The notes beneath the pieces were generated by a model. The model worked only from the letters and a program-made list of their open reading frames with translations. It did not search any database and had not been told where the DNA came from. A program made the translations under genes and the position numbers. A DNA stretch of 64,000 nucleotides, taken from assembly GCA_963662275.1 (NCBI GenBank), contig OY759316.1, positions 704,001 to 768,000 on the forward strand, written 5' to 3'. The first letter of the stretch is position 1. Every line of letters begins with the position of its first letter. The stretch is from Candidatus Cloacimonadales bacterium (GTDB lineage Bacteria; Cloacimonadota; Cloacimonadia; Cloacimonadales; DAONDQ01). Of the stretch, positions 19,421 through 54,805 are shown in pieces.

Positions 19421-19448
19421 AACCCCATCTCCTAGATGGGGTTCTTTT
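19421..19448 (+). terminator. Rho-independent terminator after the S1 gene, interrupted by intron 1
   Basis: AACCCCATCT-CCT-AGATGGGGTT-CTTTT; the T-tract continues after the intron (TTGTTT). Confidence 0.85.
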
Positions 19449-21560
19449 GTTTGCCCAGAATGTTTTCTGCGCCGATGGACTGGAAGAAGTCCTGACACCT
19501 AATCAGCGGGAAGTCAACTCGAGGTCAAGGGCGTTGCCGGCAACGGCAGGGTCTGAAGTAAGACGCAGAGGGAATATGGAACATAGCGCAAGTGAACTGA
19601 TGTTGGTTTGTAGAGTGGGTAACCTTTCAAAAAGTGGGAAAGCCCGAAAGCTGGATATCTCTACAGATTATGACAGATGGCTTCATATTCAGGCAGGAGA
19701 ACTTAACTGGGGAAGCCTGTTATTGTCTACTTAAGGTAGTCGTTTCGATCAAGTTGAAAGATAAGTGAGAAGCCAAGCGATAGCAGGTGGCAGATGATTC
19801 CGTAGTAGTGACAAACCTTTTGCCTATGAAAGCTGGTGACAGTCTGGAGGATAAAACAAAAGGGACAGCATTCACGGTAATGCTGAGGGCTGTATCTCAA
19901 AAGGATACAGTTCATGCGAAGGGATGAAGATAATCCAAAGGGATGATTTGAAATGTGGAAAGTAATCGATGAAAAGTGAGAAACGAAGGAAGAAGCTGAA
20001 ATGCTTCGAGGCTCGGTTTGACAGTGGTGACGAACTTCCTTTCAACCCCGACCGCACGAGACTGATTAGTCAGGCAAAGCTCAAAAGCAGCAGTTCTGTC
20101 ATATTGCTATATGCTAAAGAAGGCAGGACACCCTGATGAAGAGACATTCATCCTCGATGAACACCGCAAAACGAATCACAATGAGACAGGAAATGTCATG
20201 AGAAAATACTACAGTTTAATCGACAAAGTGTACTCACTGTCCAACCTGTATGCTTCCTTCACTTCGGTGAAACAGAATAAAGGTGCATCAGGCATTGATG
20301 GGCAGAGTCTAGAAAACTTTGACGAACAACTGGTAGTGAACATCAACCAACTTCACGATGAACTAATGGCAGGCACTTATGAGCCTTCACCGGTAAGACG
20401 TGTAGAGATACCCAAACCCAATGGCAAAATGAGACCGCTAGGCATTCCAACGGTAAGAGACAGAGTAGTGCAGCAGGCAATCCTGAATATCATACAACCG
20501 ATATTTGAGCCTGACTTCCATCCGTCCAGTTATGGCTACAGACCGCATCGGTCTTGCCAACATGCCGTAGCGAAAGCTCAGCGTTTTCTTACAGCGTACA
20601 ATTTGGGTTATGCTGTGGATATGGACTTATCCAAGTGTTTTGACACCTTAGACCACGAACTGATATTGAGCCGTCTGAACAGGAAAATCAGTGATGGTAC
20701 ATTGCTGAGATTAATCAGCCGTTTTCTCAAATCAGGAGTAATGGTCGATGGGGATTTCAAAGCTACTGAGATAGGCAGTCCGCAAGGTGGAGTAATCTCA
20801 CCCTTATTGATGAATATCTATCTGGATGAGTTTGACCAGAGGATGAAACAGCGGAATATCAGGATAGTACGTTATGCTGATGACATCCTGATATTTGCTC
20901 CGACCAGGAAAAAGGCAGAGCAATATCAAAAGATAGCGACAGCGATACTTGAAGAACTTCGCTTGCAAGTCAATCTGGAAAAGACTCATATCAGCAGTGT
21001 CGAAACAGGAATCAGCTATCTGGGATTTTTCATCAAAGGAAGCCGTGTCTGCATCGACAAGGAGCGTTTGAAACGTTTCAAGGATAAGATACGTAAGCTT
21101 ACTCCCCGCAACAGTGGCATCCCAATATCCATGACGATAGGAAGCCTGAATCCTGTACTAAGGGGATGGGGTAACTATTTCAAAGTTGCGAGTTGTAAAA
21201 GCATCTTTGCGAGCCTGATGGAATGGATACGAAGGAGGCTTCGAATGAAGAAGATGCGTGAATGGAAGAGCTGGAAAGCATTCCATAAAGCAATGCGCAG
21301 ACAAGGCTTCAAGGGAGAATGCCCAAAACTATCTATGACCAGATGGCGTAACGCTCAGAGCTTCCACTTATGCTTTGCCTTGCCGAACAAGTGGTTTGAA
21401 GAAATGAAGTTGTTTGATTTGACATCACTTCAGACAAGTGTTTTATTTAATTACTACGAGTAATTACAAGGATTATCAGGAGCCGTGTACGAGACCCGTA
21501 CGCACGGTTCTGTGAGAGGGATGATGCTGGAATTAATTAGCCAGCATCACCCTACTCGAT
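19449..21560 (+). mobile_element. Group II intron, IIC-like, copy 1 (2112 nt)
   Basis: 5' GTTTGCCCAGAATG; DV GAGCCGTGTACGAGACCCGTACGCACGGTTC; DVI ending CCTACTCGAT; the boundaries match the limits of identity with copy 2. Confidence 0.93.
20198..21463 (+). CDS. ltrA: Group II intron reverse transcriptase/maturase (no endonuclease domain)
   Basis: RPLGIPTVRDRVVQ, GSPQGGVISPLL, RYADD and LNPVLRGWGNYF motifs. Confidence 0.95.
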   Translation: MRKYYSLIDKVYSLSNLYASFTSVKQNKGASGIDGQSLENFDEQLVVNINQLHDELMAGTYEPSPVRRVEIPKPNGKMRPLGIPTVRDRVVQQAILNIIQPIFEPDFHPSSYGYRPHRSCQHAVAKAQRFLTAYNLGYAVDMDLSKCFDTLDHELILSRLNRKISDGTLLRLISRFLKSGVMVDGDFKATEIGSPQGGVISPLLMNIYLDEFDQRMKQRNIRIVRYADDILIFAPTRKKAEQYQKIATAILEELRLQVNLEKTHISSVETGISYLGFFIKGSRVCIDKERLKRFKDKIRKLTPRNSGIPISMTIGSLNPVLRGWGNYFKVASCKSIFASLMEWIRRRLRMKKMREWKSWKAFHKAMRRQGFKGECPKLSMTRWRNAQSFHLCFALPNKWFEEMKLFDLTSLQTSVLFNYYE

Positions 21561-21693
21561 TTGTTTACAACTGAAATCAATGTATGATGGAGATATCAAA
21601 TTTCAGAAATATAAATTGACATATTGATTCATTCTTTGATTTGACCACAATATCTATTCTCTTTTGATTCAAAGAATAGAAATCGAGGCTTAT

Positions 21694-29787: not shown

Positions 29788-30378
29788 AAATTAAGTGGAA
29801 TCTTTTGGCAAAGTAGTTGGAACGCTGTTTTCAAACGGCTATGCATTTTCAAATGGCGAGATCGTAACATAATTTGGTAAATTGTTGTATTCGATAATGG
29901 TATTATCGAATTCTGCTTTTCATCGGGGATTACCAATAACCTCATACAACAAAATGCCATTTTATGTTGCTATACGATCATTTCCCATAGCTCACGCTAT
30001 GGGTTATTATCTGCCATCTCTACGAATTGGAAGGGAAGGATAGACACATGGGTCTATCCCTACTTCCATATTCCCTGACGTTTACACGTTAGCTATCGAA
30101 TTTCATCTCTCCGAGATTCATATACAGCATAAGGTATTCACAAATCATATTTATATTCTTTGATATATAAATATATAATTTGAGATGGAAAATGGAAGAT
30201 TTGCACAGCAGACGGAACGCCTCACCCCGTGAGGAGGCAAAACGCACCCTGTGCGTTTATGTTAATTTTCCCGGCGATACTTCAACTTCGCACAGTAACC
30301 GGACCTTCCCGTTTGTTAAAAAAGGAAGTCGATGGCAGAATTAGACCCCCCTACCCCCCTTCTCAAGGGGGGATTTTG

Positions 30379-32490
30379 GTTTGCCCAGAATGTTTTCTGC
30401 GCCGATGGACTGGAAGAAGTCCTGACACCTAATCAGCGGGAAGTCAACTCGAGGTCAAGGGCGTTGCCGGCAACGGCAGGGTCTGAAGTAAGACGCAGAG
30501 GGAATATGGAACATAGCGCAAGTGAACTGATGTTGGTTTGTAGAGTGGGTAACCTTTCTAAAAGTGGGAAAGCCCGAAAGCTGGATAACTCTACAGATTA
30601 TGACAGATGGCTTCATATTCAGGCAGGAAAACTTAACTGGGGAAGCCTGTTATTGTCTACTTAAGGTAGTAGCTTCGATCAAGTTGAAAGACAAGTGAGA
30701 AGCCAAGCGGTAGCAGGTGGCAGATGATTCCGTAGTAGTGATTAACCTTTTGCCTATGAAAGCTGGTGACAGTCTGGAGGATAAAACAAAAGGGACAGCA
30801 TTCACGGTAATGCTGAGTTCTGTATCTCAAAAGGCTACAGTTCATGCGAAGGGATGAAGATAATCCGAAGGCATGATTTGAAATGTGGAAAGTAATCGAT
30901 GAAAAGTGAGAAACGAAGGAAGAAGCTGAAATGCTTCGAGGCTCGGTTTGACAGTGGTGACGAACTTCCTTTCAAACCCGACCGCACGAGACTGAGTAAT
31001 CAGGGAAAGCTGACAAGCCGTAGTTTTGTCATATTGCTATATGCTAAAGAAGGCAGGACAACCTGATGAAGAGACAATCATCATCGATGAACACCTCAAG
31101 ACGAATCACAATGAGACAGGAAATGTCATGAGAAAATACTACAGCTTAATCGACAAGGTGTACTCCCTGCCCAACCTATATGCTTCCTTCACTTCGGTAA
31201 AACGAAATAAAGGTGCATCAGGCATTGATGGGCAGAGTATAGAAAACTTTGACGAACAACTGGCAGTGAACATCAACCAACTTCACGACGAACTAATGGC
31301 AGGTACTTACGAGCCATCACCTGTAAGGCGGTTAGAGATACCCAAACCCAATGGCAAAATGAGACCGCTAGGCATTCCAACGGTAAGAGACAGGGTAGTG
31401 CAGCAGGCAATCCTGAATATCATACAACCGATATTTGAGCCTGACTTCCATCCGTCCAGTTATGGCTACAGACCGCATCGGTCTTGCCAACATGCCGTAG
31501 CGAAAGCTCAGCGTTTTCTTACAGCGTACAATTTGGGTTATGCTGTGAATATGGACTTATCCAAATGTTTTGACACCTTAGACCACGAACTGATATTGAG
31601 CAGTCTGAACAGGAAAATCAGTGATGGAACACTCCTGAGGTTAATCCGCAGTTTTCTCAAATCAGGAGTAATGGTCGATGGGGATTTCAAAGCAACTGAG
31701 ATAGGCAGTCCACAAGGTGGGGTAATCTCACCCTTATTGATGAATATCTATCTGGATGAGTTTGACCAGAGGATGAAACAGCGGAACATCAGGATAGTAC
31801 GTTATGCTGATGACATCCTGATATTTGCTCCGACCAGGAAAAAGGCAGAGCAATATCAAAGGATAGCGACAGCGATACTTGAAGAACTTCGCTTGCAAGT
31901 CAATCTGGAAAAGACTCATATCAGCAGTGTCGAAACAGGAATCAGCTATCTGGGATTTTTCATCAAAGGAAGCCGTGTCTGCATCGACAAGGAGCGTTTG
32001 AAACGTTTCAAGGATAAGATACGTAAGCTTACTCCCCGCAACAGTGGCATCCCAATATCCATGACGATAGGAAGCCTGAATCCTGTACTAAGGGGATGGG
32101 GTAACTATTTCAAAGTTGCGAGTTGTAAAAGCATCTTTGCGAGCCTGATGGAATGGATACGAAGGAGGCTTCGAATGAAGAAGATGCGTGAATGGAAGAG
32201 CTGGAAAGCATTCCATAAAGCAATGCGCAGACAAGGCTTCAAGGGAGAATGCCCAAAACTATCTATGACCAGATGGCGTAACGCTCAGAGCTTCCACTTA
32301 TGCTTTGCCTTGCCGAACAAGTGGTTTGAAGAAATGAAGTTGTTTGATTTGACATCACTTCAGACAAGTGTTTTATTTAATTACTACGAGTAATTACAAG
32401 GATTATCAGGAGCCGTGTACGAGACCCGTACGCACGGTTCTGTGAGAGGGATGATGCTGGAATTAATTAGCCAGCATCACCCTACTCGAT
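30379..32490 (+). mobile_element. Group II intron, IIC-like, copy 2 (2112 nt)
   Basis: Near-identical to 19449-21560; inserted 6 nt after the hairpin CCCCCCTT-CTC-AAGGGGGG. Confidence 0.93.
31128..32393 (+). CDS. ltrA: Group II intron reverse transcriptase/maturase
   Basis: Same motifs as copy 1, including YADD. Confidence 0.95.
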   Translation: MRKYYSLIDKVYSLPNLYASFTSVKRNKGASGIDGQSIENFDEQLAVNINQLHDELMAGTYEPSPVRRLEIPKPNGKMRPLGIPTVRDRVVQQAILNIIQPIFEPDFHPSSYGYRPHRSCQHAVAKAQRFLTAYNLGYAVNMDLSKCFDTLDHELILSSLNRKISDGTLLRLIRSFLKSGVMVDGDFKATEIGSPQGGVISPLLMNIYLDEFDQRMKQRNIRIVRYADDILIFAPTRKKAEQYQRIATAILEELRLQVNLEKTHISSVETGISYLGFFIKGSRVCIDKERLKRFKDKIRKLTPRNSGIPISMTIGSLNPVLRGWGNYFKVASCKSIFASLMEWIRRRLRMKKMREWKSWKAFHKAMRRQGFKGECPKLSMTRWRNAQSFHLCFALPNKWFEEMKLFDLTSLQTSVLFNYYE

Positions 32491-32706
32491 TAGCGCAGAC
32501 AGTTCTTCTTTCCTCCTTTTATCTTCCATTCTCACCTTTTATCTTCCATTCCAACATTTTGTCCTTCTTCCTTCCCTCCTTCAATTCTTCTGTCCACTAC
32601 AACCTACGCCCAACAACCTTCTGCCAAACCATTTCTCTTGACATAGTTTCCGTATAAAAGTTACATTCATTAGGAATTACAATTATGTTAAGAAAAGTGA
32701 GGTATC

Positions 32707-50054: not shown

Positions 50055-50288
50055 CATGGATAATAATATCTGAATAAATAGAAAAAGGTGTCGCCCCGCT
50101 GGGGCTTTTAGGTGACTTTGATGTTGTCTGCACCGGGCTTACGCCCGGTGTTATGGTCGGAAAGCCCGTACCGGGCTGAAAAGGTAGTGATGATAACGAA
50201 AGTATCAGATAGTGGCGATAACGATAGTATCAGGTAGAGATTCGAGAGTAATCTTCTGCTTCTTCACCCCATCGGGATTTTCTTGCTA

Positions 50289-52158
50289 ATAGGGGTAGGG
50301 GAGTAATCCATTACTGGCTCCCCTCCCTCCGAACCGTACGTGCGGTTCTCCCGCATACGGCTCTCCAGAAAACGAGTTCTCATTTAAGAGATTGACATAA
50401 TTCCTGATGGGCTTTGGTTAATGAGAAAAACCCAGCATTATCAAAGATGTAATTTGGATACCTGATATTGTCTTTTCCTGTGGCAATACCATAGCGCTTT
50501 TTCCTCTTTCTGAGGATACTGCGTAGCCTGTGTCTTACCCAGCCATCCAAGTTAGGAAAGACTGTTTTGTAACAGTGTTTGTAATACTCGAACCAACCTC
50601 TTTGAATCGGCTTGATTTTAGCTATTATGGTTTGTAAGCTGTGGGCATTACTGCGTCCGGTACATTTACGGATGCTGTCTTTGAACTTGTTGATACTCTT
50701 CTGTCTGGGGTATCTTTTACCCTTGAAGAAGTGGTATCCTAAAAATTCCACCGCTTCCGTTTCTGCGTCCAGTATTTTAGTCTTTTCAGGATGCAAAACC
50801 AGACCTGCTTTTTCAACCCATTCGCCTATTGTACATAAAGCCATTTCTGCTTCCTCTCGACTTTGACACATGACTACAAAATCATCCGCATAGCGTATCA
50901 TTCTATAGCCTTTGCCTGCCATAAGCCAGTCCAGAGGATTCAGATAAATGTTTGCCAGTAATGGACTGATAACTGCTCCCTGAGGTGTTCCCGTTTCCGG
51001 TGTCCAGGTTGACGTTGTATCCATTACTTTTTGATTCAAATAGTCATTGATAAGATTCAGAACTTTCCCGTCTGCTATCTTTTCTCCTACACGCTTCATC
51101 AGCTTGTCCTGCGGTATACTGTCAAAGTATCCTTTCAGGTCTGCATCCACAACAAAGACGTATCCCTGCTTGAGAAGTCCATCGACTTGTCTTAAAGCAT
51201 CTTTGCAGTCGCGTTTGGGACGAAAGCCATAACTGTGTTCGGCAAATCCCTGTTCAAATATCGGTTCGATTACATTGCGCAGTGCTGTTTGTACTACTCT
51301 GTCCGTGACGGTCGGTATGCCCAAAGGTCTCTTTTCCTTACTGCCCGGTTTATCTATCCAGACACGTTTGATTCCATTGGGTTGATACGCTTCCTTTTGC
51401 AACAGTTCGGAGGTTCGTACTAATCTTGCCAGCGCATGTCTTTTGTAGTGCTGGATGCTGACATTGTCGATACCGGCACTACCTCTGTTGGATGCCACGT
51501 GTTTCCAAGCTGATGCAAGGTTTGCCATGGCATATACCTTGTCTATCAGACTGAACCATTTTCCACCTTTGACGCCCATTTCGAGCGCTGCCAACATTTT
51601 GTCAGACCATACTGACGGTTCCACCCAACTCCATTGCGGAGGGATTTCTCGTTCTTGTTTAGCCGTTTTCGGCAATAATGAACGTTGATCTTCCATCAAT
51701 ACTCCTTTCAAAATTCATTTTCCTGTGCCCCTTCGCTACTTTCAGGTTATAGTGTCCTGAATATCATCGCTACTATGAACACTCTGACTCCTGCTGATGT
51801 CTCTTCCCATCAGCAGGTCTCATAGCTTGAGATAGAAACCTTCACAACATTCCGTCTCCAGTCACTTGATACAATCAGTACATGGCTTTTGCACGTCATC
51901 TCAGCCTGTCTGCCATCTTCCGGGGGAAACTCCGGTTCACCCGAAGTGCATCATTCCAGAAGATTTTGGTCTTCGCTTAAGGCTAGCAAGCTCGACATTG
52001 TATCCTGCCGAATCGAGTTCGTTATCCTACGGACTGCTGTTTCGTCATTTGTTACTCCCCACCCCATCTCACGATGAAGCAGTTACATAGACTACCAGGC
52101 ATGACGTAGCCTGAAATGGGACTTGCACCCATCCGATTTCTATCTATCACTATCGTAC
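50289..52158 (-). mobile_element. Group II intron, IIB-type (class E/F-like), 1870 nt
   Basis: 5' GTACG...GGGTGCAAGTCCC; full-length DV GAGCCGTATGCGGGAGAACCGCACGTACGGTTC; 3' ACCCCTAT; removing it restores a repeat unit. Confidence 0.9.
50380..51696 (-). CDS. ltrA: Group II intron reverse transcriptase/maturase
   Basis: GGKWFSLIDKV, RPLGIPTVTDRVVQ, GTPQGAVISPLLANIYL and RYADDF motifs. Confidence 0.95.
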   Translation of the reverse strand: MEDQRSLLPKTAKQEREIPPQWSWVEPSVWSDKMLAALEMGVKGGKWFSLIDKVYAMANLASAWKHVASNRGSAGIDNVSIQHYKRHALARLVRTSELLQKEAYQPNGIKRVWIDKPGSKEKRPLGIPTVTDRVVQTALRNVIEPIFEQGFAEHSYGFRPKRDCKDALRQVDGLLKQGYVFVVDADLKGYFDSIPQDKLMKRVGEKIADGKVLNLINDYLNQKVMDTTSTWTPETGTPQGAVISPLLANIYLNPLDWLMAGKGYRMIRYADDFVVMCQSREEAEMALCTIGEWVEKAGLVLHPEKTKILDAETEAVEFLGYHFFKGKRYPRQKSINKFKDSIRKCTGRSNAHSLQTIIAKIKPIQRGWFEYYKHCYKTVFPNLDGWVRHRLRSILRKRKKRYGIATGKDNIRYPNYIFDNAGFFSLTKAHQELCQSLK

Positions 52159-52335
52159 TAACACCCGGGCGTAAGCCCGGCGGGAGAGACACAAGAATAA
52201 CGTGACACAATCTTCTTCTGCTGCTTCTTCTTCTTCCTTCTCCATCCCATCGGGATGTTCTTTCTATAACGCTCGGGCGTAAGCCCGGCGGGAGAGATAC
52301 AAGAATAACGTGACACAATCTTCTTCTGCTTCTTC

Positions 52336-54228
52336 GGAGATGTCCCGAAACTAGCATGATTTTATTTTCTTCTGTTGTAAAATATGTGATTGTTTTTACA
52401 GGCAAACTAAATTACTCAATAGTTTCCGAAAAGCGATGCAAAGACAAGGAAAAACGGAGTAATATTTACCTAATTCATGTTTGAATTCTGGTAGGAAGAG
52501 TCTTCATCAGGCTTTTCCTTCAGTATTTTGTAAGTGCAGAAACATTTTCCCTATATTATGTCCTAAAAAGAGGAGGGATAACTGTTCCTTGCATTTTCTC
52601 AATGAACGGACAGTAAATCTCTCAAACTTCCTGTTCCACTTCATGAAAGCAAATACAGCCTCCGGTTCGATGCCTCTTTGCTTTCTCAGCTTGTCGCCTT
52701 TTTCAGAAAGCAGATTATTGACTGTCTGACGTTTTAGTGGAGCTATATGAGGATCGTAGGTCAGTGATTTATGAGTTTTATCCTTGTAGGGAATACACTT
52801 TTTATTGTGAGGACATTCTCTGCAGTCATTACATATATAGGTTTTCACGATTCGTTTCGGACCGTTCTTCTCTGTCTCTTCTTCCTTGATTTTGACCAGT
52901 CTCCGATTAAATTGACAGACCCACTCATCATGCTCCTCATCATAGCTGAAGCCTGTCAGAAGAGAGTCCCGATAATCTCTCTTATAATCCTGGGTCTTGA
53001 GATAGCTTGTTATCTCTTTTTCAGCAGCATAATTCAAATTCAGCGCAGTGCCATAGGCAGCATCTCCAACAACGTCGGTAGGATATTGTCCCAATTCATC
53101 ATGCATTTGCTCCATGAGATTGGGAAATTCAACGGTTTCTTTAGGGATATTGAATAAGTGAATGCCTGTGACAAATTGCTCTGAAGTTCCGATACTGGCA
53201 ACATAACCCGGTGCCAGCTGTCCATTTTTCAATCGCATAAATGTGGCATCATTATCAGTCTTGGATGTGCTGCTGCGTCCTTCTCCAATTATCTCAAGCT
53301 GTTGCTCATATTTCTCCAGCTTAGTTATATCATTGCTCTTTGATTTGGAGATTTCGCGCAAAAGAGATTTGATTTTCTTGATAGCCCGAGTATCTGACGG
53401 ATGATTTTTCTGTAGTCGGGACATTGCTTCTTTCAGCTTGTTTTCTGCTGAGACCAGTCTATCTCTGATCTGTTCAGATGCGACTGTAGCAGTTTTCTCT
53501 GATTCAACCGCATGCAATTGCTCACCAAGCTCAAGAAGATCAGCGGTTCCATATTGCTGTTGCTCTTCCTGATTATATTCCTCGATCTTTTTAAACAATC
53601 CCTCAACTCGTGTCTTGACCAGTTCCTGATAACGAAGCGCATTGCTTTTCCAGATGTAGGAATTCTTGCCGGCATTTGCGTGAATCGTCGTCCCGTCAAC
53701 AAAACAGGTGTCGAGATCAAGATATCCTAATGATGATGCTTTCAGTACTACCTGATAAAATACATCAATAAGAATATCAGAACACTTAGTCCAGGCAAAG
53801 GTGTTGATCGTTCTGAAATCAGGTTCCTGTTCTCCTGCCAGCCAGATAAAATTGATGTTCTCCCGAACAGCCTTAGCTATCTTCCGACAGGTATAAATAC
53901 CATTGATATAGGCATACACAATGATCTTCAACATCATCTTGGGATGATAAGCAGGTGTACCTTCATCAGAGTATCTTGTGTATAGCTCAGATAAGTCCAG
54001 TTGCTCAACGACATCGTTAACATAACGAACCATGTGCTGGGGAGGTATTCTCTCTTCAATATTAAGTCCATAGAGTGTCCCCTGATTCGGATTGTGCTCT
54101 CTGAAATTCATAATTCTCTCTATGCTTAGTTTTTAAAGGCAACAATACACCCTATAACAATATGTCAAGTAATATGATTAATATTTAATAGTTGCTATTT
54201 TTCTATCATTTAGTTTCGGGACATCTCC
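52336..54228 (-). mobile_element. IS1182-family insertion sequence
   Basis: Perfect 18-bp terminal IRs GGAGATGTCCCGAAACTA / TAGTTTCGGGACATCTCC; no target duplication seen. Confidence 0.9.
52507..54111 (-). CDS. IS1182-family DDE transposase
   Basis: GTPAYHPKMMLKI, PDFRTI, VDGTTIHANA, SKTDNDATFMR, GDAAYG, Cys cluster and EPEAVFAFMK. Confidence 0.92.
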   Translation of the reverse strand: MNFREHNPNQGTLYGLNIEERIPPQHMVRYVNDVVEQLDLSELYTRYSDEGTPAYHPKMMLKIIVYAYINGIYTCRKIAKAVRENINFIWLAGEQEPDFRTINTFAWTKCSDILIDVFYQVVLKASSLGYLDLDTCFVDGTTIHANAGKNSYIWKSNALRYQELVKTRVEGLFKKIEEYNQEEQQQYGTADLLELGEQLHAVESEKTATVASEQIRDRLVSAENKLKEAMSRLQKNHPSDTRAIKKIKSLLREISKSKSNDITKLEKYEQQLEIIGEGRSSTSKTDNDATFMRLKNGQLAPGYVASIGTSEQFVTGIHLFNIPKETVEFPNLMEQMHDELGQYPTDVVGDAAYGTALNLNYAAEKEITSYLKTQDYKRDYRDSLLTGFSYDEEHDEWVCQFNRRLVKIKEEETEKNGPKRIVKTYICNDCRECPHNKKCIPYKDKTHKSLTYDPHIAPLKRQTVNNLLSEKGDKLRKQRGIEPEAVFAFMKWNRKFERFTVRSLRKCKEQLSLLFLGHNIGKMFLHLQNTEGKA

Positions 54229-54805
54229 GTTCTTTCTATAACGCTCGGGCGTAAGCCCGGCGGGAAAAGCTCTAAAATAACGGGACACTATCTTCTTCTG
54301 CTTCTTCTTCTTCCTTCTTCATCCCATCGGGATGTTCTTTCTGTAACGCTCGGGCGTAAGCCCGGCGGGAGAGGATCGAGAATACGGGACACTATCTTCT
54401 TCTGCTTCTTCATCCTATGGGGATGTTATTTTTATAAATGTACTCTGCTAGCCCAGGAAGTCCTTCCTGGGTTGAGATGGCACGACAACGTTTGAGTTCG
54501 GTAGGACGGCACAATACATATACCGAAGCAATCAACGCCTGAAGGAGTTACCACACAGGCTAAAGGAGTTGCCACCAATCGTATTACGGCTTGTTAAGCC
54601 GTTAATAGAGTGGTTGTTAACCCCGAATCTCTATATACCAGAACTTTGTAAGATGTTATGAGGTTTGGGTGAATCATAAATCTAAAACTTAAATTGATTG
54701 TTACTAATTCAAGTATTCTGCTGAAGTAATTTCGTTGACACATTTATTTAGAACATCATTACTGCCATAGAAATCGAAAATCATCATTTGAAGGGCAGTG
54801 AAAAT

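Follow-up and report, generated by a model that had tools for sequence, protein, structure and literature searches.

A complete group II intron of 1870 nt occupies positions 50289-52158, on the minus strand, of a 64,000-nt stretch of DNA from Candidatus Cloacimonadales bacterium (assembly GCA_963662275.1; a single-contig genome of 4.38 Mb with 39% G+C). This stretch, C1:704001-768000 of the contig OY759316.1, is called the window, and coordinates refer to it unless preceded by C1. With a probability of roughly three in four, the intron is a recently active element without an endonuclease, from a so far unnamed lineage whose sister group is class C plus the g6 variety, and finds its sites by a DNA hairpin, a short intron-binding site (IBS1) paired with exon-binding site 1 (EBS1) of the intron, and one further base (IBS3), with no EBS2 involved. 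An earlier note on the window, made from the sequence alone, had taken it for a IIB-type intron homing into a dispersed hairpin repeat.

The intron is real and recently active. Six full copies, 100% identical across nt 1-1870, are found in the genome when it is searched with the intron by blastn. Since these copies stop sharply at nt 1 and nt 1870, both ends are fixed (5' GUACG, 3' ...CCCCUAU), and six identical copies argue for recent activity. The genome also holds one 272-nt 5' fragment and two 5' fragments of a diverged relative (~105 nt, ~78% identical). Domains V and VI (DV and DVI), at the 3' end of the intron, score 63.6 bits with Rfam RF00029 (gathering score 40) and have the AGC triad and the bulged branch A. 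The open reading frame (ORF) of domain IV (50380-51696, minus strand; 438 aa) starts with ATG behind an AGGAG box and encodes a reverse transcriptase (RT)/maturase (Pfam RVT_1 8e-40, GIIM 2.8e-17) that has the YADD motif and no endonuclease domain. Homologues of the RT measure 438-439 aa, and the closest solved structures are the IIC RTs 7uim and 6ar1 (~1e-62).

The hairpin in front of the intron is a property of the whole lineage. Two RT-based scans gave 19 genome loci and 80 metagenome loci; the 5' part of the ribozyme was recognisable in 52 of these 99, 5' ends were placed, duplicates were removed, and two plasmid members, from Paraburkholderia (pBN3) and Cupriavidus, were added. The records carry the labels Cloacimonadota, Acidobacteriota, Proteobacteria, Firmicutes (Desulfosporosinus) and Verrucomicrobia (an Akkermansia metagenome-assembled genome). 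A hairpin was scored when a perfect stem of at least 5 bp with a loop of 3-9 nt ended no more than 9 nt from a junction that had at least 35 nt of upstream flank. By this rule a hairpin stands 2-8 nt before the junction at 41 of 44 lineage junctions, compared to 175 of 2000 random 45-mers from the same loci (9%); two of the three exceptions are introns directly behind another intron copy. The upstream 30 nt have a median DNA folding energy of -7.65 kcal/mol vs -2.0 kcal/mol for random 30-mers (Mann-Whitney p = 5e-24). The T-run of a terminator is absent after the stems, both in the genome and in the relatives; the tails are CTA, GTGTTA, AGCGTTA and similar. When the flanks of the collected copies and homologues are compared, hairpins lie upstream of nearly all, and their stems are unrelated in sequence and differ in length and loop, not in position. 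Since the relatives' hairpins are unrelated, what the targets have in common is a shape and an IBS1 of 5-6 nt rather than a single repeat family. The suggestion, made earlier for the window copy, that insertion behind hairpins occurs outside textbook IIC introns thus extends to the entire lineage.

Several loci carry head-to-tail tandem pairs of introns (L009, L030, L042, L056, L080 and L115, the last at pBN3 104914-108630), in which the second copy begins at the base after the last nucleotide of the first. Beside a resident copy, the hairpin and IBS1 are kept and IBS3, the +1 base, is changed. Re-insertion where a copy already resides would account for this most simply; an alternative is that the DVI stem of the first copy serves as the hairpin.

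The genome's own copies follow the same pattern. All six copies and three fragments stand behind a hairpin, at a distance of 3-7 nt, and four hairpin sequences are represented. In four full copies the hairpin is an 8-bp one, family A, and is followed by CTA; one full copy and the 272-nt fragment stand behind another hairpin and AGCGTTA; the window copy stands behind its own hairpin and GTGTTA; and the two diverged fragments stand behind a fourth hairpin, followed by AGCTA or AGCAA. The first 3' exon base is T in all six full copies. The family-A target, CCCATAGC-N4-GCTATGGG then CTA/T (the slash marks the junction), makes six pairs with EBS1. There are 20 family-A GGGCTA/T sites in the genome. 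The 4 that are occupied are all co-directional with the replication fork, and the 16 empty ones comprise 8 that are co-directional and 8 that are not. Most likely, family A is the cognate target and the window copy is an off-target match, with four pairs, on a look-alike hairpin in a local array. The idea of multi-copy repeats as targets is supported in this genome, where the best-matching sites are a multi-copy hairpin repeat with 20 sites and 4 occupants; the relatives' hairpins are not one family. Family-A hairpins also form tandem arrays with a period of ~64-70 nt at C1:1446998-1451741 and 1482732-1486892, and in one such array, besides five cognate sites that are empty, there are two intron copies separated by 140 nt.

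The site of the window copy lies in a tandem array with a period of 108 nt. Excision of 50289-52158 unites 50259-50288, the left part of a split unit (87% identical to 52237-52266), with the right part, 52159-52227 (94% identical to 52267-52335), to give one unit of the repeat; the right part and the intact next unit (52237-52335) together span 52159-52335. The target hairpin in the 5' exon, CCGGGC/GCCCGG (52165-52180, minus strand; 6-bp stem, 4-nt loop), ends 6 nt before the 5' junction, and the minimum free energy of the upstream 30 nt, as DNA, is -8.0 kcal/mol. The IBS1, GUGUUA (52159-52164, minus strand), makes four contiguous pairs with EBS1, one of them G-U, followed by a mismatch; IBS3 is the first 3' exon base, T at 50288 (minus strand), which pairs with intron A297. 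Empty look-alike sites are present on the intron strand at 52267-52289, in the intact next unit, and at ~54250 and ~54360, past an insertion sequence (IS), where two further units lie at 54229-54414 (85-89% identity by blastn), each with the hairpin and GCGUUA. Another, with the same hairpin followed by UGUUA/U, is at 50133-50153 on the plus strand, opposite to the intron. The restored repeat unit, the 6-nt spacing and the unoccupied sites had all been pointed out in the earlier note and are confirmed. The repeat itself is a local array rather than the dispersed one proposed there, because it amounts to about two units beside the intron and two past the IS, the two flanks of the intron have, elsewhere in the genome, just four short, weak partial matches (blastn), and the exact window hairpin, CCGGGCnnnnGCCCGG, is present at only 2 loci in the genome. 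Homing into a dispersed repeat is therefore not supported at this site, and this copy sits at a second-best site, with four contiguous pairs instead of six.

The bases that read the exons were located by aligning 47 non-redundant introns over their first 470 nt and scoring each column for pairing with each exon position. Covariation identifies EBS1 as UAGCC(U), intron nt 174-178(179) (window 51980-51985, minus strand), which lies in the 9-nt loop that caps the hairpin nt 168-184: exon positions -1 to -5 pair with nt 174-178 at frequencies of 0.95, 0.88, 0.88, 0.84 and 0.80, with 5-6 pair types each. Counted contiguously from -1 in 46 sequences, the pairs number 1 in 3 sequences, 2 in 2, 3 in 4, 4 in 6, 5 in 15 and 6 in 16; at least five are therefore made in 31 of 46. 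For the window intron, UAGCC(U) makes six pairs with the GGGCUA of family A, and four contiguous pairs with GUGUUA and with GCGUUA. EBS3 is A297 (window 51862, minus strand). It lies in the internal loop of subdomain ID, on the 3' strand, which carries the conserved GUG-N-UUGGAG; its column pairs with the 3' exon +1 base at 0.88 with 6 pair types, and in 34 of 36 sequences. An EBS2 was sought by rerunning the scan with 45 sequences for exon positions -6 to -15. The best column reached no more than 0.66 and the best columns were not adjacent; because these positions find no partner columns, there is no EBS2-IBS2 pairing in the lineage.

The hexamer UGACGU (51893-51898), proposed in the earlier note as EBS1, was rejected. 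Its column pairs with exon -1 at 0.51 (vs 0.95 for the true EBS1 column in the 47 aligned introns), and when domain I (DI) is folded it lies in the terminal loop of another hairpin, nt 253-275. By covariation it belongs to alpha', the partner of the loop at nt 51-58. Specifically, alpha' is AUGACGU at nt 260-266 (51893-51899, minus strand), and alpha is ACGUCAU at nt 52-58 (52101-52107, minus strand), in the loop of the hairpin nt 46-63 of subdomain IB. At least five Watson-Crick pairs between them are kept in 27 of 37 distinct relatives despite changed sequences; the mean run is 5.11 pairs, vs 3.55 +/- 0.16 with partners swapped, and the maximum of 500 permutations is 4.16.

DI comprises nt 1-337, in the order EBS1 hairpin, variable arm and alpha' hairpin. 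Its consensus fold, from 35 sequences, has 77 pairs, 64 of them with compensatory changes, and the ribozyme without the ORF is ~553 nt. Among the Rfam D1-D4 models the only match to DI is a sub-threshold one, to RF02001, at 31.9 bits (threshold 32); the same model detects the genome's own g6 introns at ~51 bits. DV (50331-50363, minus strand) is 33 nt long and, in the Rfam alignment, has the AGC triad, a 4-bp upper helix and a 5-nt GAGAA loop (GCGG-GAGAA-CCGC). It is 1 nt short of the consensus; the DV of the genome's second intron type (type 2) is 3 nt short. DVI (50291-50328, minus strand) has its branch A at 50296 and a basal helix of 3 bp plus an A-C mismatch, which Rfam marks as non-canonical. 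The unusual 5' end, GUACG, with A at intron nt 3 (window 52156), accompanies a U in the GAGUAAC motif near nt 105. This combination is seen in the window intron, L002, L004 and L014, and GUGCG introns carry C in the motif, L016 being an exception; the joint change of nt 3 and GAG-N-AAC looks like epsilon-epsilon' covariation.

The RT places the intron next to class C. Class labels were taken from Table S3 of Miura 2022 (PMC8919778), and the sequences of labelled introns from plasmid records. In phmmer comparisons the window RT scored highest against the type-2 RT (257 bits), followed by g6 (225), C (219), a Rhodococcus 'Unclassified' row (209), F (197), G(g1) (170), D (157), B (156), E (131-151), CL1A (131), ML (126) and A (113). 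Three trees were built: FastTree with 70 rows left after near-duplicate filtering of 93 rows (fragments <380 aa and L106 removed), and two IQ-TREE quick runs, one with 56 rows (14 named rows dropped for speed) and one with 41 (31 dropped, 2 added). Besides the C and g6 rows, the references included one row each for classes A, B, D, F and CL1A, and two for E. The lineage forms a single clade in all three trees, with support of 94 (FastTree) and of 100 and 100 by the Shimodaira-Hasegawa-like approximate likelihood ratio test (SH-aLRT; IQ-TREE). The 41-row tree gives [Sulfobacillus, (C, (g6, type 2))] as its sister group, with an SH-aLRT of 97 for the joint node, and separates the lineage from D/E, from F and from the 'Unclassified' Rhodococcus row; rows L103 and L104 (class E) and L108 (class F) group away from it. 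The Paraburkholderia pBN3 intron, labelled 'Unclassified' in Miura 2022 Table S3 (PMC8919778), nests within the lineage.

The IIB label is not supported, since no EBS2 pairing is found, the RT groups with class C/g6 and not with the A, B, D, E, F or CL1A rows, and DI scores just below the RF02001 threshold. In the trees its intron-encoded protein (IEP) is sister to the C/g6 rows, not nested among them, with one labelled C row and one labelled g6 row to define that clade. Two traits of class C/IIC are present, a DNA stem-loop upstream of IBS1 and the lack of EBS2-IBS2. Others are absent, namely an EBS1-IBS1 of 3-4 bp, a terminator target (stem plus T-run), and an abbreviated DI in a small ribozyme of ~400 nt. 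Of the traits of IIE/IIF, alpha' on a stem-loop tip and a 5-nt DV loop are present, and a covarying EBS2-IBS2 and an IEP in the E/F clade are not. The lineage thus appears to adjoin class C without falling in it, and its RNA seems to mix IIC-like targeting with IIE/IIF-like traits.

A mechanism can be proposed from these features. The ribonucleoprotein would select DNA sites by a short hairpin of nearly any sequence that ends 2-8 nt upstream, read the 5-6-nt IBS1 with EBS1 (intron nt 174-179), and read the one base of IBS3 with A297. The hairpin, probably recognised by the ribonucleoprotein as a DNA shape, would take the role of EBS2-IBS2, as the DNA stem does in the solved IIC particles. The intron would then reverse splice into the lagging-strand template at replication forks and be copied from the nascent strand, a route that fits an RT without an endonuclease domain. 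GC skew locates the replication origin at about 4.16 Mb and the terminus at about 2.15 Mb; with these, 5 of 6 copies of the window intron and 11 of 11 g6-type (type-2) copies are oriented in the direction of fork movement.

A number of points weigh against the proposed lineage and its hairpin-guided targeting. The window copy is itself the one copy that points against fork movement. Contigs from four sequencing runs break at the intron ends and none bridges 50289-52158, so that they are uninformative on empty-site alleles and splicing. The hairpin requirement is suggested by position statistics rather than by experiment, and the junctions behind these statistics are not fully independent, since several share a genome or a repeat family. 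Moreover, no multi-copy intergenic DNA is commoner than hairpin-rich repeats. Often IBS1 takes in the last 1-3 bases of the stem, and EBS1 pairing and the full stem are therefore mutually exclusive at such sites. When applied to 13 labelled references, the hairpin rule matched 2 (one class E and the g6) and missed both labelled class C introns; because of these misses it is to be taken as describing the close spacing of this lineage and not as a general IIC detector. Furthermore, the C/g6 side of the tree consists of a single row each for class C, g6, the type 2 of the same genome and an unlabelled Sulfobacillus, and with a single C row and a single g6 row the lineage might yet be placed within a broader class C.

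Three other explanations were weighed. The strongest of them, still rather unlikely, is that the intron is simply a divergent member of class C (IIC), set apart by sequence drift alone. Targeting by hairpin, IBS1 and IBS3 without EBS2, the IIC RTs as best solved relatives, the sister position to C/g6 at an SH-aLRT of 97, the 3-bp DVI basal helix and the near-threshold RF02001 score (31.9 bits against 32, from a model that detects the genome's own g6 introns at ~51 bits) all agree with it, and g6 itself was first filed as a divergent class C (PMC4244168). Drift is a poorer account of a clade that is separate from the C/g6/type-2 rows at an SH-aLRT of 100, of an EBS1 of 5-6 bp and not 3-4 (PMC7923331), of hairpins without a T-run, of a ribozyme of ~550 nt vs 412 nt in O.i.I1, and of alpha' on a stem-loop tip together with a 5-nt DV loop, which are IIE/IIF traits (PMC3753933); moreover, Table S3 of Miura 2022 labels one member 'Unclassified', not C.

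The hairpins could instead be incidental, each sub-lineage homing by its 5-6-nt IBS1 and protein contacts and surviving mainly in palindromic intergenic repeats, which are harmless and numerous. An EBS1 of this length gives some specificity, copies within the same genome share repeat-like flanks in Cloacimonadales relatives (L002/L003, L004/L008), and a survival bias is expected of any mobile element. Sites of 6 nt are, however, far too frequent to account for 41 of 44 junctions with a perfect stem at a fixed distance of 2-8 nt, and from stem to stem the sequence, length and loop change but the position stays. When introns re-insert in tandem, the hairpin and IBS1 are retained and IBS3 is not, and a neighbouring RT clade from the same scans is, by eye, without such hairpins. 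Incidental hairpins are accordingly judged improbable, more so than drift within class C. Least credible by far is homing by sequence of a IIB-type intron, with UGACGU as EBS1, into one dispersed hairpin repeat of which the hairpin is a mere feature. Six pairs can be written between UGACGU and GUGUUA, removal of the intron restores a repeat unit, and some RNA traits are IIB-like, of the E/F type; but pairing of the UGACGU column with exon -1 reaches just 0.51, the covariation partner of the hexamer is the loop nt 51-58, four of the six copies end in GGGCUA, which would put an A-C mismatch at the third pair, the window repeat is local, and the relatives use unrelated hairpins. Targeting by hairpin, IBS1 and IBS3 in a lineage beside class C accordingly stays the preferred explanation.

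If this explanation is right, a well-supported sister lineage shares a habit that has been called exclusive to IIC, which widens the range of structure-guided retrotransposition, and the pile-up of these introns in hairpin repeat arrays and in tandem is explained. It is conceivable, as a tentative proposal, that the lineage is a living intermediate that combines an E/F-style (IIB-like) ribozyme and a full 6-bp EBS1 with a DNA hairpin in place of the EBS2 arm. Such an intermediate would allow a direct test of the proposal that EBS2 originated by imitating the DNA stem in RNA (PMC10190682), or of the opposite one, in which a DNA hairpin replaced an EBS2 that had been lost; a mode of targeting by shape plus 6 nt would also be open to reprogramming. 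The lineage provides material for examining how the EBS2 arm and the DNA stem are related, and the correct EBS1, EBS3 and alpha' are now supplied for annotation of the family.

Other mobile elements were seen beside the intron. An IS on the minus strand (52336-54228, ends approximate) splits the same 108-nt array, which resumes at 54229; its transposase ORF, 52507-54111, matches DDE_Tnp_1_6, DUF772 and DDE_Tnp_1. From C1:926491 onward, one end of the same IS follows, at a distance of 9 nt, a further intron copy that stands at a family-A hairpin. Because it splits a hairpin array in one place and adjoins an intron copy at a hairpin in another, this IS may also prefer these hairpin repeats. The genome holds 11 copies (94-100% identity) of the type-2 group II intron, which is 2117 nt long; two of them lie in the window, at 19445-21561 and 30375-32491, both on the plus strand. 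The type-2 RT shares 38% identity with that of the hairpin-guided intron and groups with the g6 variety. All type-2 copies lie directly after a G+C-rich hairpin and a T-run, a classic terminator, and the EBS1-type loop of this intron is A-rich. The scans also recovered a different RT clade, near class F and 35-42% identical (L057, L063-L079, L081, L086, L088 and L090). By eye, its junctions have no hairpin before the 5' end. ATG closes most of its 5' exons, and a hexamer resembling a -10 box, TAnnnT, lies ~6-9 nt further upstream, which suggests a promoter-proximal or start-codon-type target.

In the literature, the use of a DNA stem-loop has been tied to IIC. Zimmerly & Semper 2015 (PMC4424553) state that every lineage except class C homes to sequence sites, and Chung 2022 (PMC10190682) that recognition of the DNA stem-loop, which occupies the place of the EBS2 arm of IIA/IIB, is exclusive to IIC, a view found also in PMC12584367; Gomes 2025 again ascribes hairpin recognition to IIC. 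According to the accessible text of Sonbol & Siam 2021 (PMC7923331), a role of upstream structure was never reported for IIB. A literature search, with some subscription papers and one thesis outside its reach, returned no description of this lineage's EBS1, of its hairpin rule or of its non-terminator hairpin-repeat targets.

The nearest precedent is Miura 2022 (PMC8919778), in which the IEPs of C, g6, U1 and U2 are close together and the introns often lie right after predicted terminators. The window intron shares with the g6/U1/U2 group (PMC4244168, PMC8919778) IEPs near C and a clade member, pBN3, labelled 'Unclassified', and the type-2 intron of the same genome groups with g6, a variety at first classed as a divergent form of class C (Toro & Nisa-Martinez 2014, PMC4244168), and follows classic terminators. 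In the accessible part of Miura 2022, distances to predicted terminators are measured, and neither an EBS1, a hairpin rule nor non-terminator hairpin repeats are described. IIC-attC introns and the IIB introns beside attC (PMC7923331) likewise land on a DNA element that is both structured and repeated; the sites of the present lineage differ in being short perfect hairpins without a TTGT/T consensus or an integron context.

Some RNA traits are shared with IIE/IIF, which Nagy et al. 2013 (PMC3753933) describe as having alpha' on the tip of the DId3 stem-loop, a 5-nt DV loop and a length of 450-700 nt, and whose EBS1 is also of the 6-bp class. Their covarying EBS2-IBS2 has no counterpart in the lineage, the RT lies elsewhere in the tree, and no hairpin habit is reported for E/F in the accessible text of that paper. 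The closest likeness is to class C/IIC, represented by the E. rectale intron with MarathonRT, GsI-IIC, B.h.I1 and O.i.I1. Both have an RT without an endonuclease domain, no EBS2, and a target in which a DNA stem-loop is followed, after a short spacer, by IBS1 and by an IBS3 of one base. They also share the bias towards fork direction, as in the insertion into the lagging-strand template with nascent-strand priming described for IIC (PMC4424553), the 3-bp DVI basal helix usual in IIC (PMC4748821), and an EBS1 hairpin motif on the same Rfam model. The lineage is set apart by its separate RT clade; by a longer, variable EBS1, of 5-6 bp vs the 3-4 bp of class C (PMC7923331); by hairpins that are not terminators, having no T-run, and that lie closer to the junction; and by a larger DI, in a ribozyme longer than the 412 nt of O.i.I1 (PMC3753933), with alpha' on its own stem-loop, a variable extra arm, and a 33-nt DV with a 5-nt loop.

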